IMG/VR virus record: IMGVR_UViG_2526164630_000014
Span: 1 to 13,507 of that record
From: a virus
Taxonomy: Duplodnaviria > Heunggongvirae > Uroviricota > Caudoviricetes
Reading direction: 5' to 3' (one strand)
Length of the DNA: 13,507 nucleotides
The position numbers and the translations under genes are program-made. This document shows positions 6,753-13,507 of the stretch, piece by piece (position 1 is the stretch's first letter; each line of letters begins with the position of its first letter). The notes under the pieces are model-generated. The model was given only the letters and a program-made list of their open reading frames with translations, was not told where the DNA came from and did not search any database.

Positions 6753-6865
6753 CTCACAATTTTCCCTCTATTTAGCAAATGGATAAATACGCATTATGAT
6801 AAATTTACATTGCGGTTGATTTATCAAAATGGTAAAGTTGTTCTGTGTGATAAACGGAGGCACTA
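6753..6865. promoter_or_regulatory. OR operator cluster with divergent PRM/PR promoters
   Basis: 113-bp intergenic between divergent cI and cro. GATAAA-core motifs at 6782..6789 (GGATAAAT), 6797..6804 (TGATAAAT), 6819..6826 (inverted ATTTATCA) and 6848..6855 (TGATAAAC). Candidate PR -35 TTGCGG (6810..6815) and -10 TAAAGT (6833..6838). cro SD GGAGG at 6856..6860. Confidence 0.6.
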
Positions 6866-7559: not shown

Positions 7560-7703
7560 ATGCGAAAAACGCAGGAAAATAAACGCGTTAATCACCGAAA
7601 AGATGTGCTACGTGACCAGTTTTATCAGGGGGTTAATCCAGCAATAGCTGTGCCACTGAGAGAAATACTTAACAGGTACAAAACTTCGGAGAAGTCAAAA
7701 TGA
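7560..7703 (+). CDS. Hypothetical small basic protein (47 aa)
   Basis: ATG at 7560 preceded by GAGG; MRKTQENKRVNHRKDVLRDQFYQGVNPAIAVPLREILNRYKTSEKSK; stop overlaps the start of the replication initiator (ATGA). The longer track ORF from 7392 overlaps cII and is probably not the true start. Confidence 0.4.
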   Translation: MRKTQENKRVNHRKDVLRDQFYQGVNPAIAVPLREILNRYKTSEKSK

Positions 7704-8497
7704 GCATGAATCTTATGGCTAAGGCCATGAATATAAAGGTTGGCAACCCACTGAGAAAACTGGTTCTGATTAAACTTGCCGATAACGCCAATGATAATGG
7801 CGAATGCTGGCCTTCATATCAACATGTCGCTGACCAGTGTGAGGTGAGCAGATCGACAGTAAAAAGTCACATTAGGGCACTGGAAGAGATGGGGCTTTTG
7901 AAAAGGGAATTCAGAAGAAAAGGAGAGCTTAACCAGTCAAACGTTTTTTATCTGACGCTGGATAATGCACAACAAATCCAACCAGAATCAGGTGGGGCAG
8001 GAGCTGCCCGGGGTGGGGCAGGAGCTGCCCGGGGTGGGGCAGGAGCTGCCCTAGGGGGTGGGGCAGGAGCTGCCCCCAGAACCTATCACTCTTTTGAACC
8101 AGTCAATGAACCTAAAAACATTATGTTCGAACATGTCCGAACAGAGTGTGAAAAAACTCCTGACCGTCACGAAGAAACCGACAAGGCATTCGAGGAAATA
8201 TTCTGGTGTGCAGGCATGCGGAAAGCCGGGAAGAAAAACGCAGCTTCAGCATTCAGAACACAGTTCAGGGAATGGCGTAAAACTACCAGGGGGACGGCAA
8301 GCGAGTTTGCCACGATGCTGGCAGAAGACATTGCGTGCAGGCTCGGTAAGCAGTTCGGGTTCGACAGGTTGTTACCATCGAGCTACCTGAACGGTCAACG
8401 CTGGAACGACGAGAAGCCAGAAACTATTCAACCACAATCCAAACCATCATCCGCAATCACCGTATCGAAAACTGGCTACGTGTTTTTCGACAGGTGA
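7700..8497 (+). CDS. Replication initiator protein (lambda O-like; N-terminal winged-HTH domain)
   Basis: 265-aa ORF. N-terminal NPLRKLVLIKLADNANDNGECWPSYQHVADQCEVSRSTVKSHIRALEEMGLLKR is typical of phage replication-initiator HTH domains. A Gly/Ala-rich linker is encoded by four tandem DNA repeats (iterons). Sits after cII and before the helicase. Confidence 0.75.
   Translation: MSMNLMAKAMNIKVGNPLRKLVLIKLADNANDNGECWPSYQHVADQCEVSRSTVKSHIRALEEMGLLKREFRRKGELNQSNVFYLTLDNAQQIQPESGGAGAARGGAGAARGGAGAALGGGAGAAPRTYHSFEPVNEPKNIMFEHVRTECEKTPDRHEETDKAFEEIFWCAGMRKAGKKNAASAFRTQFREWRKTTRGTASEFATMLAEDIACRLGKQFGFDRLLPSSYLNGQRWNDEKPETIQPQSKPSSAITVSKTGYVFFDR
7991..8077. repeat. Four tandem iterons (candidate ori) inside the initiator gene
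   Basis: Core TGGGGCAGGAGCTGCCC at 7993..8009, 8014..8030, 8035..8051 and 8059..8075 (spacing 21, 21, 24 bp); each core has an internal dyad GGGCAG/CTGCCC. Same architecture as lambda ori within gene O. Confidence 0.7.
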
Positions 8498-8500
8498 ACC

Positions 8501-8608
8501 ATGAAATCCAGAATCAAATCGTTACTTATCGCTGGCTATAACCATGGCTGGCTTAGTTCTGCATTCGTTGAGTTCTGGTTTAACCGTCTCGATCTGAGGT
8601 CAGCGTAA
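8501..8608 (+). CDS. Possible small ORF (35 aa) translationally coupled to the primase-helicase
   Basis: ATG at 8501 (MKSRIKSLLIAGYNHGWLSSAFVEFWFNRLDLRSA*); its TAA overlaps the ATG of the next gene (TAATG). Weak RBS. Confidence 0.25.
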   Translation: MKSRIKSLLIAGYNHGWLSSAFVEFWFNRLDLRSA

Positions 8609-11514
8609 TGACTCCAAGTGAACTGAGCGACCTGCTTTGGGCGCAGGTTGACAGGGTGGCTCCGCACCTGTTGCCAAACGGCAAGAAAGAGGGGCATGAG
8701 TGGGTTGCCGGTAACGTCAACGGTGACAAGGGAAACAGCCTTAAGGTCAACATTAGCGGCAAGAAAAAATGGGCTGATTTCGCTGAGGGAGACGGCGGTG
8801 ACATGCTTGATTTGTGGATGGCATGTCGTGGAATTAACCTGCATCAGGCTATGCAGGAAGCGAAAGCATTTCTCGGTATCAAGGATGACGATCACCATTT
8901 CGATGCCAAACGTGAGAAAAAATTCTCCAGACCTGACCGCAAGAAAATCGCCCGCTACGTTACCAGAACAGAATCCCATCTTGAGTACCTGCAATCGCGT
9001 GGCATATCGCCAGAAATCGTAAAGCGCTACGAGGTTGTCAGCGGCAAGGTGTGGAATGGAGAGCGGGAACTGGATGCTCTGGTGCTTCCGTACAAACGCG
9101 ATGGTGAGTTGTTGCAGGTCAAGCGAATCAGCACTGAGCGCCCGGACGGGAAGAAAGTCATTATGGCAGAAGGTGATTGCGAACCTTGTCTGTTCGGATG
9201 GCAGGCTCTGGACGCTGGCGTGAGGGCGGTTGTACTTTGCGAAGGCGAAATTGATTGTATGAGCTATGCGCAATACGGCATCTCGGCGTTATCCGTGCCG
9301 TTTGGTGGCGGGAAAGGCGCTAAGCAGCAGTGGATTGAGTTTGAGTATCACAACCTCGACAGGTTTGAGGAAATATTCATCTCGATGGACGTTGATGATG
9401 TTGGTCGTGAAGCCGCAAGGGAAATCGCAAGCCGACTCGGTGAACATCGTTGCCGTCTTGTTACTCTGCCGTACAAAGACATCAACGAATGCCTGATGAA
9501 CGGTGTTACCGAGGATGAAATCTGGCAGTACATCGGCACGGCATCCTATTTCGATCCTGAAGAACTCTACAGTGCGCGAGAGTTTTACCAGGACACTATC
9601 AACGCTTTCTACGGCAAGAAGCAGTATCTGTTTAATCCACCGTGGGAATCTCTGGCAGATAAATTCCAGTTCCGTGAGGCCGAGTTGACGCTGGTCAATG
9701 GTGTGAACGGTCACGGAAAGGCATGCCCACTGAATGAGCCTATTCTTTTAGCTGATGGGACATGGACTACTCACGGGGATGTAAAAATTGGCGATCAGGT
9801 GGCGTCAGTAGACGGCAATCCGTCAACTGTCACTGGGATATTCCCGCAGGGTGTTAGAGATGTTTACCGAGTCACATTTGAAGATGGTCGTTATGTTGAT
9901 TGCGCAGGCGATCACCTATGGGAGGTCACTAGTCGTGGATTCACGAAAGGCGAGAAACGCCGCGTGATTGACACCTTCGAGCTGAAGCGGTTGAGTGAAA
10001 CGAAGAGGCACAAAAATGGCGTTAGGATTCCTGAAATAACTGGTGACTTTGGCGACCACTCAGAGCCATTAGCATGGGTTATCGGCTCCCTTCTCGGGGA
10101 TGGTAGTCTTAGCAATGGGAGCGTGAAGTTTTCAAACGTCGAGCCATACATGATCGAGCGTATGAAGGCTGAACTGCCTGATTACAACTTCTCTGGAGAT
10201 GGTAAGGACTGGCTGATATCAACGGCGCGTGGTCAGGCAAATCCACTCATGGAGACCCTGCGAGGTTATGGACTAATGGGGTGCACAGCAAAAAACAAAT
10301 TCATCCCTCGTGTGTTTTTTTCCGCAAATAAATCAACGCGTATAGGCATGCTGTGTGGTCTGCTTGAAACGGATGGGTATGTCGAGAAGGATGGAACGCT
10401 TGTTTTTTCCTCAGCAAGTGAAGAACTGCGCAATGGGGTTGTTCAACTGGTTAACTCACTCGGCGGGTCATGCCGGACGCGAGTTAAAACTGGCGTGACA
10501 TACACATACAAGGACGATAAGCGGCATGGGATGGATTCATACGAGGCAAGAATCAGACTGACAAGAGAAATCAGGGAGGCCATCCGTTCACCACGACTCA
10601 ATGGCAGATTAACTGCGCATCGATTCGAGGGCTGTGGGGTATTCGTCAGGAATGTTGAAAAAATCGGCAATGCAGAATGCTTGTGTATTATGGTCGATCA
10701 CCCTCGCCACCTGTATGTAACCAGGGGATATGTGGCGACGCATAACACCGAGGTTGTCGGGCATATGGCACTTGAGGCAATGCGTCAGGGTGTGAAGACG
10801 TGCATCGCGTCACTTGAGCTGAAGCCTGGTATTCTCCTTAAGCGCCTTACCCGTCAGGCGACGTGCTGCAAGATGCCGCCAGTGCTGGAAATTGACTCTG
10901 CATTTAAATTTTATGACGAAAGACTTTGGGTGTTTGGCCTGACCGGAACGGCGAAAGCCGACAGGCTGATCGAAATATTCGACTACGCTCGCCGCCGATA
11001 CGGTATCCAGTTATTCATCATCGACAGCCTGATGAAATGTGGCATAGGCGACGATGACTATAACGGGCAGAAGGCGTTTGTTGACTCGATTTGCGACTTC
11101 AAAAACAAAACAAACTCCCACGTCATTCTCGTTACTCACTCGCGAAAAGGAGACAGCGAAGAAAAACCAACCGGGAAAATGGACGTAAAAGGCTCTGGAG
11201 CGATAACAGACCTGACAGACAACCTTTTCATCATCTGGCGTAACAAGGCTCGCGAGAGAGCGTTACAGAGAGTTCAGAGTGGTGAAAAGATGTCAGAGAA
11301 GGACGAACAGCTACTGGCATCTCCGGCATCTGTTTTGATGCTTGAAAAACAACGTAACGGCGAAGGTTGGGAAGGTGGTGTCCCGTTGTTCCTTGACGAG
11401 CAATCGCACCAGTTCCTGCAACTTGAATCAGGATCGCCATATAGCTACATCGCCAATATGCCGAAATCGGAATATGACGAGGCGTGGCGACAGGAAAACG
11501 TGACGGAGTATTAA
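8608..11514 (+). CDS. Bifunctional primase-helicase (Toprim primase + DnaB/gp4-like helicase), intein-containing
   Basis: 968-aa ORF. Toprim motifs VLCEGEIDCMSY and ISMDVDDVG in the N-terminal half. Helicase P-loop NGVNGHGKA split by an intein, resuming TEVVGHMALEAMRQG. Walker B-like LFIIDSLM and HVILVTHSRK downstream. Predicted spliced product 627 aa. Confidence 0.9.
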   Translation: MTPSELSDLLWAQVDRVAPHLLPNGKKEGHEWVAGNVNGDKGNSLKVNISGKKKWADFAEGDGGDMLDLWMACRGINLHQAMQEAKAFLGIKDDDHHFDAKREKKFSRPDRKKIARYVTRTESHLEYLQSRGISPEIVKRYEVVSGKVWNGERELDALVLPYKRDGELLQVKRISTERPDGKKVIMAEGDCEPCLFGWQALDAGVRAVVLCEGEIDCMSYAQYGISALSVPFGGGKGAKQQWIEFEYHNLDRFEEIFISMDVDDVGREAAREIASRLGEHRCRLVTLPYKDINECLMNGVTEDEIWQYIGTASYFDPEELYSAREFYQDTINAFYGKKQYLFNPPWESLADKFQFREAELTLVNGVNGHGKACPLNEPILLADGTWTTHGDVKIGDQVASVDGNPSTVTGIFPQGVRDVYRVTFEDGRYVDCAGDHLWEVTSRGFTKGEKRRVIDTFELKRLSETKRHKNGVRIPEITGDFGDHSEPLAWVIGSLLGDGSLSNGSVKFSNVEPYMIERMKAELPDYNFSGDGKDWLISTARGQANPLMETLRGYGLMGCTAKNKFIPRVFFSANKSTRIGMLCGLLETDGYVEKDGTLVFSSASEELRNGVVQLVNSLGGSCRTRVKTGVTYTYKDDKRHGMDSYEARIRLTREIREAIRSPRLNGRLTAHRFEGCGVFVRNVEKIGNAECLCIMVDHPRHLYVTRGYVATHNTEVVGHMALEAMRQGVKTCIASLELKPGILLKRLTRQATCCKMPPVLEIDSAFKFYDERLWVFGLTGTAKADRLIEIFDYARRRYGIQLFIIDSLMKCGIGDDDYNGQKAFVDSICDFKNKTNSHVILVTHSRKGDSEEKPTGKMDVKGSGAITDLTDNLFIIWRNKARERALQRVQSGEKMSEKDEQLLASPASVLMLEKQRNGEGWEGGVPLFLDEQSHQFLQLESGSPYSYIANMPKSEYDEAWRQENVTEY
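9724..10746 (+). mobile_element. Intein (341 aa) with LAGLIDADG homing-endonuclease domain, inserted at the helicase P-loop
   Basis: Starts with Cys (CPLNEPILLADGTWTTHGDVKIGDQV, block A), block B-like VDCAGDHLW, two LAGLIDADG motifs (VIGSLLGDGSL and LCGLLETDGYV), ends ...YVATHN followed by Thr +1. Flanking extein sequence forms a GxGK...T P-loop. Confidence 0.85.
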
Positions 11515-11784
11515 ATGAATAAAAAACAATTAGCCATTCTCGAAAAGGCATGGGATGCACAAATATCATACGCTTTGAAAGAACAGGCACTACCAATAAT
11601 CCAGACCAAATCGAAAATAGCCAGGCAGTTATGCGATGGCGGATTCCTGAACGAAGTTGAGATTACGCGCCAGATGGTAACGTTCAAAGGGTATGAGATA
11701 AATCATCATGGTATAGCAGCGTATTGTTCCCATCTTCCTGATGACGTTGACATTGATGAAATGGAAGGGGAGATGAAGCAATGA
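11515..11784 (+). CDS. Hypothetical protein (89 aa)
   Basis: ORF starting immediately after the helicase stop (TAAATG); operon-like tight packing; no family recognised. Confidence 0.5.
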   Translation: MNKKQLAILEKAWDAQISYALKEQALPIIQTKSKIARQLCDGGFLNEVEITRQMVTFKGYEINHHGIAAYCSHLPDDVDIDEMEGEMKQ

Positions 11785-11873
11785 CCATCTACATCACTGA
11801 GCTTGTAACAGGCCTGCTGGTAATCGCAGGCCTTTTTATTTGGGGGAGAGGGATTGGAGGCTTTAAGAAATGA
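11781..11873 (+). CDS. Possible small hydrophobic peptide (30 aa)
   Basis: MTIYITELVTGLLVIAGLFIWGRGIGGFKK*; one predicted TM helix; ATGA overlaps with both flanking ORFs. Confidence 0.3.
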   Translation: MTIYITELVTGLLVIAGLFIWGRGIGGFKK

Positions 11874-12085
11874 GTACGATAGCTGAGCTTGTCAGGGCTA
11901 ATTTTCGTGAAGAGTTGGTGCGTTGGTATCGGTATCGTTCATCGTCCAGTTTGCCGCTTGATGAGTTGTATGAGCATTCACCTGCCGCACGACGCTATCC
12001 GCGTGACCGTGTTCTTCGACGGTTGTTCAAACTCAACAATGAGTTTCAGCGCAACAGAATTATCCGGAGTCTGGATTTAAAGTGA
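11870..12085 (+). CDS. Hypothetical protein (71 aa)
   Basis: ORF in the nin-like region, start overlapping the preceding small ORF; no family recognised. Confidence 0.45.
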   Translation: MSTIAELVRANFREELVRWYRYRSSSSLPLDELYEHSPAARRYPRDRVLRRLFKLNNEFQRNRIIRSLDLK

Positions 12086-12095
12086 AGGAGTGAGC

Positions 12096-12333
12096 ATGAG
12101 CGACCTATCATTAACCCAGCCAAAGCTAAAAGAATGTCCGTTTTGCGGCGGTAATGCTCGTCTGTGGGTTGAGGCCGGAATAAATATTGATGTGTGGGGC
12201 GTATGCAGAATGTGACCTCTGTGAAGCCAGGGGGCGATGGGCACCATCAGTTGCTGCGGCGGCTGAAAAATGGAACCGGAGAGCAGGAGATGAAGCAAAC
12301 CTTTCTGCTTCGCAACGAAGCAATCAGAAATAA
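12096..12333 (+). pseudogene. Lar-like restriction-alleviation protein, frameshifted
   Basis: Good SD (AAGGAG). Frame 0 encodes MSDLSLTQPKLKECPFCGGNARLWVEAGINIDVWG... and stops at 12213. The rest of a Lar-type zinc ribbon (YAECDLCEARGRWAPSVAAAAEKWNRRAG...) continues in the +1 frame to 12333. The shift lies within 12184..12212, probably an extra G near 12201. Confidence 0.5.
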
Positions 12334-12736
12334 CGCCATAGACGCCATTCTCTCACTACCCATCGACGACAAGTCACCCCACGAAGTCCACGTTAAAGAA
12401 CCCAAGCGCAGCAAAGCGCAGAATGACCGTATGTGGCCGATGCTGAACGATGTTTCGCGTCAGGTGCTATGGCATGGTCAACGGCTGGCGCCGGAAGACT
12501 GGAAAGACCTGTTCACTGCCCTGTGGCTTAAGACCAAAAAACTGGAGCAACGAAGTGTGCCTGGTATCGACGGTGGCGTTGTCATGCTTGGCGTGCGTAC
12601 CAGCAAAATGCGGAAGGCCAGCATGACTGAGCTTATCGAAATCATGTTCTGGTTCGGCTCAGAGCGCAACGTGCGGTGGAGTGATGACTCCCGGCGAGAG
12701 TATGAATGGTCACAACGAAAAGGTAGGGCTGCATGA
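12290..12736 (+). CDS. ninB: NinB (Orf-family recombination mediator)
   Basis: 148-aa product from the internal ATG; KAQNDRMWPMLNDVSRQVLWHG and C-terminal ...[19 protein letters not shown] resemble lambda NinB; call from recall. Confidence 0.8.
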   Translation: MKQTFLLRNEAIRNNAIDAILSLPIDDKSPHEVHVKEPKRSKAQNDRMWPMLNDVSRQVLWHGQRLAPEDWKDLFTALWLKTKKLEQRSVPGIDGGVVMLGVRTSKMRKASMTELIEIMFWFGSERNVRWSDDSRREYEWSQRKGRAA

Positions 12737-13260
12737 CTATCAAATCAAATACGCCAGCACACGACAAGGACTGCTGGCAAACGCCGCTTTGGCTTTTTGA
12801 TGCACTGGATATTGAGTTTGGATTCTGGCTGGATTCGGCAGCGAGCGACAAAAATGCTCTGTGCGCTCACTGGCTAACTGAGGCCGACGACGCGCTCAAT
12901 TCTGAGTGGGTAAGCCACGGTGCAATCTGGAATAACCCACCGTACAGCAATATCAGGCCGTGGGTGGAAAAAGCCGCTGAGCAGTGCATACAACAGCGAC
13001 AGACGGTAGTTATGCCTGTGCCAGAGGATATGTCAGTCGGATGGTTCAGCAAGGCTCTGGAGAGTGTTGACGAAGTTCGCATCATCACTGATGGACGGAT
13101 TAATTTTATCGAACCATCGACAGGGCTGGAGAAGAAGGGAAACAGCAAAGGCTCCATGCTGCTGATTTGGCGACCGTACATCAGTCCTCGACGAATGTTT
13201 ACTACTGTATCCAAAGCGGCATTGATGGCGATCGGGCAGGGCGTCAGGAGGGCGGCATGA
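12733..13260 (+). CDS. Phage DNA N6-adenine methyltransferase (orphan, no cognate nuclease evident)
   Basis: 175-aa ORF with the NPPY catalytic motif ([10 protein letters not shown]); start overlaps the ninB stop (ATGA). Confidence 0.8.
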
Positions 13261-13439
13261 GGCGACAGCGACGAAGTATCACCGACATCATCTGCGAAAA
13301 CTGCAAATACCTTCCAACGAAACGCTCCAGAAATAAACGCAAGCCAATCCCAAAAGAATCTGACGTAAAAACCTTCAATTACACGGCTCACCTGTGGGAT
13401 ATCCGGTGGCTAAGACATCGTGCGAGGAAAACAAGGTGA
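13257..13439 (+). CDS. ninE: NinE
   Basis: 60-aa product from the internal ATG ([60 protein letters not shown]), near-identical to lambda NinE; start overlaps the methyltransferase stop. Confidence 0.85.
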
Positions 13440-13507
13440 TTGACGCGATGATTTATTCGGGGCTATATTCCTCACGCGCCAGCAAAATCTGGCGTCGGGA
13501 TTGGCGT
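13436..13507 (+). CDS. Start of next nin-region ORF (partial)
   Basis: Open frame from GTG 13436 / ATG 13451 ([20 protein letters not shown]...) running to the window end, overlapping the ninE stop. Confidence 0.3.

Follow-up and report, generated by a model that had tools for sequence, protein, structure and literature searches.

The lar gene in the early region of a Stx-type lambdoid prophage of E. coli DEC11C is recorded in two reading frames, which are separated by a single extra G at position 12201. This frameshift is most probably an artefact of sequencing or draft assembly. Such a reading is favoured because the private single-base indels of the contig form a set of singletons that consists of insertions only and is largely non-duplicative. 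The lar gene of the real phage is probably intact. The window, i.e., the whole stretch of DNA that was analysed (13,507 nucleotides), is the complete 13.5-kb draft contig AIGX01000004.1 of the assembly GCA_000250155.2.

Gene order in the nin region

The serotype of strain DEC11C is O45:H2 (PMC6028524). The window region is 99.7% identical to many Stx phages. Its positions 11870-13439 are a standard nin-region operon with the order DUF7301-lar-ninB-dam-ninE from left to right and overlapping start and stop codons (Table 1). The same order is found in 933W, VT2-Sakai, phi24B and several hundred STEC prophages. Both lar and dam are known and ordinary genes, annotated already in hundreds of Stx-phage and STEC genomes, where they are named by the NCBI pipeline.

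The genes of this operon are tightly packed. The DUF7301 stop codon ends on the base with which the lar Shine-Dalgarno sequence begins, lar runs 44 nt into the start of ninB, and ATGA start/stop overlaps connect ninB with dam and dam with ninE. The ninB gene has its own GGAG 8 nt upstream of the start codon, and the exact NinB protein of the window occurs on at least 1000 public contigs. A terminator-like hairpin followed by a T-run (11810-11843, plus strand; stem of 8 bp with 6 G-C pairs) is located just upstream of DUF7301-lar-ninB within a 30-aa ORF and may represent the nin-region terminator of tR2 type. Apart from the hairpin at 11810-11833, a scan of 11400-13507 for promoters and terminators did not rise above the level expected from shuffled sequence.

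Table 1. Features of the nin region in the window
Feature	Position	Strand	Evidence
DUF7301 family gene, 71 aa, directly 5' of lar	11870..12085	+	PF23975, 91.5 bits; PGAP name in EDL933 'DUF7301 family protein'
lar Shine-Dalgarno sequence AAGGAG, 5 nt 5' of ATG 12096	12085..12090	+	read from sequence
Lar N-terminal fragment, frame 0, 39 aa then TGA, MSDLSLTQPKLKECPFCGGNARLWVEAGINIDVWGVCRM	12096-12215	+	ORF list; TIGR03655 positions 1-27, 28.0 bits
Lar C-terminal fragment, frame +1, (M)MCGAYAECDLCEARGRWAPSVAAAAEKWNRRAGDEANLSASQRSNQK then stop	12187/12190-12333	+	ORF list; TIGR03655 positions 27-55, 28.9 bits
Extra G causing the frameshift, GGGGC[G]TATG	12201	+	alignments to VT2-Sakai, EDL933, 2013C-3264 and F403
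Poly-G tract region, GGGGGCG in the window, GGGGGGC in intact relatives	12230..12236	+	alignments, allele look-ups
ninB, 148 aa, intact, start ATG 12290	12290..12736	+	PF05772, 165.1 bits
Phage Dam-family N6-adenine methyltransferase, 175 aa	12733..13260	+	PF05869, 212.7 bits; TIGR01712 equivalog, 260.2 bits
ninE, 60 aa	13257..13439	+	PF05322, 147.8 bits

The two halves of lar

The preliminary description, which was made from the sequence of the window, proposed a Lar-type zinc-ribbon gene divided between two frames and overlapping ninB. Both open reading frames are where it placed them, and the two halves match complementary parts of the family profiles. The overlap of the two frames is 29 nt long (12187-12215). 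CPFC (12135-12146), the first pair of the zinc ribbon, is encoded in frame 0, and both the second pair, CDLC (12211-12222), and the WNRR motif (12271-12282) are encoded in frame +1, the translation of which ends with CGAYAECDLCEARGRWAPSVAAAAEKWNRRAGDEANLSASQRSNQK before the TAA codon at 12331-12333. Thus the CxxC...CxxC and WN+R elements, found in one frame in the relatives, are distributed between two frames in the window.

In PF14354, positions 2-20 are covered by the first half and positions 25-58 by the second. As encoded, neither half reaches the TIGR03655 cut-off of 39.6 bits. Conceptual repair by removing G12201 raises the score to 62.8 bits for TIGR03655 (E 2.6e-17) and to 41.8 bits for PF14354 (cut-off 28.6), and it is only through this repair that full-domain membership in the Lar family is reached. 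The match of the joined halves to the Lar profiles is far beyond chance. The identification of the gene had been made dependent on a Lar zinc-ribbon signature in a profile search, and this signature is present. A search of PDB sequences with Lar did not find a solved homologue; the zinc-ribbon fold is supported by weak similarity to eL43, a ribosomal protein with a zinc ribbon (E 0.009).

The extra base and its uniqueness

An intact single-frame homologue in related phages had been named in advance as a sign that the frameshift is an error, and such homologues, of essentially this sequence, do exist. H0103 of VT2-Sakai is an intact lar of 237 nt encoding 78 aa. The intact 237-nt gene is also present in Stx2a_F403, and one identical sequence is shared by 62 of the 83 related loci. 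The window differs from these intact genes at two sites only, namely the extra G and a GC-to-CG swap at 12235-12236, 34-35 nt further downstream. The swap changes GGGGGGCATGG of the relatives into GGGGGCGATGG and gives A47R in the repaired protein. The recorded form around the extra G, GGGGCGTATG, would be that of a pseudogene; in the case of an artefact, GGGGCTATG and, at the swap, GGGGGGCATGG are expected.

The extra G was found in none of the 83 related loci, 76 of which carry the intact G6 form of lar. A 43-mer centred on it had no megablast match in 5,426 complete E. coli genomes, including 527 that possess the locus, and a 29-mer with the extra G had no exact match in IMG/VR. Exact look-up among approximately 15 billion proteins revealed the truncated 39-aa product (EHX18419.1) on one public contig, AIGX01000004.1, which is the window itself. 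The intact 78-aa Lar was found in such a look-up on at least 1000 contigs, and the repaired Lar with R47 was not found elsewhere. The preliminary description considered lar to be apparently inactivated. The frameshift is indeed present in the record, but an artefact is likelier than a biological event, the extra G being unique and occurring amid other unique gene-breaking insertions.

Private changes along the contig

The nearest relative for the whole-contig comparison was Stx2a_F403. Comparison with it and with the fetched loci as a whole revealed private insertions of a single base at 11, 25, 414, 679, 2212 and 12201, and possibly at 5624, which is ambiguous as it sits at the edge of an alignment block. 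Private single-base deletions were not found anywhere in the contig in the same comparison. Over 1-3327, each of the 12 best-matching phages is shorter than the window by exactly five bases. Insertions 11 and 25 fall in the leftmost part of the contig, in an ORF of 90 aa. The remaining four disrupt a 63-aa ORF (414), the C-terminus of exo (679), gam (2212) and lar (12201), each breaking one gene, so that the earlier count of lar as the fourth single-base frameshift of the window is correct. When the six bases are deleted, the 63-aa ORF, exo (226 aa), gam (98 aa) and lar (78 aa) regain the lengths annotated in the relatives.

Four of the six confirmed insertions do not double a neighbouring base. 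Some of the changes are adjacent to homopolymers, such as GGGGC[G], [T]ATTTTTT and G6C read as G5CG, and several insertions resemble the flow-type or consensus errors that occur at such runs. The genomes of the DECA collection are presumably 454-based. The contig also has 11-13 private substitutions. Private changes are confined to 1-6794 and 12201-13178; between them, 8012-12200 does not differ from Stx2a_F403 at any base, and the 2.9-kb primase-helicase gene is free of any private change. A single STEC genome can contain up to 4 copies of the lar locus and up to 9 matches to one or another part of the window. Consensus errors in collapsed repeats are favoured because the genes of the flanks are multi-copy in these genomes. 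The other frameshifts of the window (exo, gam and the 63-aa ORF) probably share the artefactual origin and deserve the same discount.

Several further features of the contig were observed. The gene of a 968-aa Toprim primase-helicase (8608-11514), equally long in Stx2a_F403, seems to harbour an intein, marked by a block running from GHGKACPLNEPILLADG to VATHNTEV and by a weak LAGLIDADG_3 Pfam match. The O-like replication gene (7700-8497) has 21 bp (7991-8011) that are not in Stx2a_F403; this insertion has GGTGGGGC on both sides and looks like a copy-number difference of an iteron-type repeat unit. The segment 4373-5621, between N and the cI-side genes, has no match to the nearest relatives and is a mosaic replacement; its minus strand codes for an NYN-domain protein of 272-285 aa, and Stx2a_F403 has the stk kinase at this place. 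The only Rfam match of the window is the lambda cIII thermoregulator RF01804 (2700-2758, minus strand, 88.5 bits).

The Dam methyltransferase

The preliminary description also recognized an NPPY-type adenine methyltransferase directly after ninB, with no partner nuclease, and this is borne out by the profiles, the motif and the neighbouring genes. The protein covers positions 1-165 of the 165 positions of TIGR01712, and its scores are to be compared with cut-offs of 97.05 bits for this profile and 28.1 for PF05869. The catalytic NPPY, of the (D/N)PPY type, is formed by residues 68-71 (nt 12934-12945). In the window as well as in 933W, VT2-Sakai and EDL933 the adjoining genes encode NinB (PF05772) and NinE (PF05322), with no restriction endonuclease adjacent. 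The family defined by TIGR01712 and PF05869 includes the Dam proteins of phages T1 and HP1.

The VT2-Sakai enzyme M.EcoVT2Dam, described as an orphan methyltransferase and Dam homologue (PMC6602927), has the same length, the same NPPY and the same position between ninB and ninE, with 173 of 175 residues identical. The window protein differs from it by two singleton substitutions, L95P (13016) and F149Y (13178); L and F are found in 64-66 related loci. In a test for a chimeric consensus, P95 and Y149 were absent from all 11 other full-length members of the 90%-identity cluster, and an exact look-up did not find the window variant of the protein elsewhere. These substitutions are possibly consensus errors too. 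The enzyme would methylate adenine, and GATC is its likely target because of the near-identity (99%) to M.EcoVT2Dam. The whole window contains 35 GATC sites, somewhat fewer than the approximately 52 expected from the base composition. The phi24B copy of dam is expressed in lysogen cultures (PMC3342100).

The methyltransferase of the window is not the prophage 16S rRNA enzyme M.EcoPA8orf6770P. The latter is MT-A70/M.EcoGV-like, lies near the left end of its prophage (approximately 3.3 kb on the map) and has PNB-2 as partner (Gong et al., PMC10810198). M.EcoGV and M.EcoVT2Dam are listed as separate enzymes of one prophage (PMC6602927).

Length variation of the poly-G tract in lar

A poly-G tract lies approximately 29-30 nt downstream of the extra G. 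All lengths from G3 to G10 were found in public sequences by exact look-ups of the products (Table 2). Among 491 complete-genome records with the locus, G7 occurs in 22 and G5 in 3; the 78 IMG/VR loci comprise 73 with G6 and 5 with G7. The amino-acid variants R45W, R45S and G46V also fall in the tract. The inspected copies marked as 'frameshifted' by PGAP are those of EDL933 (G7) and 2013C-3264 (G5). The frameshift of the window is not one of these alleles, which differ from intact lar at the tract itself. The G7 allele of 933W is real, since the Sanger record of 1999 and several later EDL933 assemblies agree on it. Rare tract lengths may be errors.

Table 2. Tract lengths of lar and their products
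Tract	Contigs	Product
G3	2	in frame, 77 aa
G4	1	truncated, 55 aa
G5	6	Lar'-NinB fusion, 212 aa
G6	at least 1000	intact, 78 aa
G7	812	truncated, 56 aa
G8	2	Lar'-NinB fusion, 213 aa
G9	10	in frame, 79 aa
G10	3	truncated, 57 aa

The products of G7, G4 and G10 keep the zinc ribbon and lose the WNRR tail. In G5 and G8, the N-terminal 46-47 residues of Lar, with both CxxC pairs, are in frame with NinB, and fusion proteins are predicted. One such fusion is located at L004:1201-1839 in E. coli 2013C-3264; the equivalent frame of the window is the ORF 12194-12736. In 933W, L0092 (L084:1998-2357, 119 aa) is the G7-truncated lar frame read from a GTG further upstream, within the DUF7301 gene; it is an annotation artefact of the frameshifted allele.

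The tract is a mutational hot spot and, judging by its sequence variation, possibly a switch. Its length is polymorphic between isolates, as in a contingency locus; the frameshift of the window lies outside it. It is conceivable, if rather improbable, that the G6 tract of Stx phages acts as a hypermutable switch, by which populations would hedge between Lar-ON, Lar-OFF and the Lar'-NinB fusion. The reason for such hedging would perhaps be that Lar-family proteins can be toxic DNases, by analogy with RalR.

Function and relatives of Lar

The lar product would be a 78-aa C4 zinc-ribbon protein of the Lar family. By family resemblance, it would act early after infection or induction, blunting type I restriction. 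The designation of lar and dam as an anti-restriction cluster, given in the preliminary description, holds for the gene identities (a Lar-family protein and an orphan Dam) but is an overstatement otherwise: the order of the genes is the conserved one of the nin region, and the counter-restriction roles of both are inferred from the family names.

The closest relatives are the Lar genes of Stx phages, such as H0103 of VT2-Sakai (BAA94131.1) and 'Orf7'/L0092 of 933W, with approximately 99% nucleotide identity. They occupy the same place between DUF7301 and ninB, share the CPFC...CDLC...WNRR architecture and are named 'Lar family restriction alleviation protein' by PGAP. Neither the extra G nor the A47R swap of the window is present in any of them; the lar of 933W has a different frameshift, at the poly-G tract (G7).

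The Lar protein of the Rac prophage, RalR, belongs by profile to the same family (TIGR03655, PF14354) and is likewise a small, cysteine-rich prophage protein. It is not an orthologue, the window Lar scoring 26.6 bits on the NF007260 equivalog against a cut-off of 113. Rac Lar, the family prototype, alleviates restriction (King and Murray 1995, as cited in PMC4041452), and RalR was shown to be a toxin, a non-specific DNase, whose antitoxin is an sRNA (Guo et al. 2014, PMC4041452). An Rfam scan for a RalA-like antitoxin or other RNA revealed no sRNA family in or near the lar locus. A functional analogue of Lar is Ral of phage lambda, a small early phage protein that alleviates type I restriction. 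Lambda Ral is not known to share a sequence family with Lar; its gene is on the N-side of lambda and not in the nin region.

Error, pseudogene or recoding

Under the artefact reading, a spurious G at 12201 would break lar and be accompanied by the GC-to-CG transposition at the poly-G tract. Both changes would most likely be errors of base calling or consensus building where a run of G is followed by C; the flanks of the contig would be repeated among several prophages of the same genome. Against this reading, insertions 414 and 2212 do not fit a simple homopolymer-error model, and the private substitutions could be true divergence or reflect relaxed selection in a decaying prophage. A genuine private pseudogene, i.e., a decaying DEC11C prophage in which lar, gam, exo and the small ORF have each acquired a real +1 insertion, is the less probable explanation, though it deserves some weight. 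Four genes are broken in one prophage, and L95P, F149Y and A47R all change an amino acid, as would be expected from relaxed selection. Natural frameshift alleles of lar (G7, G5) are common in other strains, with PGAP marking them accordingly; loss of lar is evidently tolerated because real alleles of this kind exist (G7 of 933W and EDL933). However, bacterial pseudogenes generally decay through deletions more than insertions, and single-base insertions that arise naturally mostly duplicate a base of a homopolymer; the contig has six or seven insertions against zero deletions, and four of the six confirmed ones are not duplications. Furthermore, each change is a singleton among thousands of genomes, and the changes cluster towards the contig ends, leaving the primase-helicase gene untouched. 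The extra base is most likely an error.

Two other explanations would make the split a functional state of the gene. Programmed recoding, in which a +1 ribosomal frameshift or transcriptional slippage joins the frames and full-length Lar is made, could draw on the preservation of both halves, the frame overlap and the nearby G-run. It was rejected as extremely improbable: approximately 95% of the relatives have a single frame, so a frameshift is not conserved, the split allele is a singleton, and no +1 shift site was recognized by reading 12187-12215 (neither an RF2-type stop context nor a slippery heptamer). Scarcely more credible is an ON/OFF contingency locus, of which the window would represent one OFF state produced by slippage in G-rich sequence. 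The full allelic series at the poly-G tract, found across several serotypes, is consistent with such a locus, but the lesion of the window is a non-duplicative G after C upstream of the tract, and the rare tract lengths come mostly from short read-derived assemblies. A G6 tract is also short for classical phase variation.

Biological significance

The split lar has a small biological weight: the genes concerned are known, and the frameshift, seen in a single draft contig, is most likely artefactual. The only lead, a modest one, is the real poly-G length variation in the lar gene of Stx phages, including the common G7 allele of 933W.
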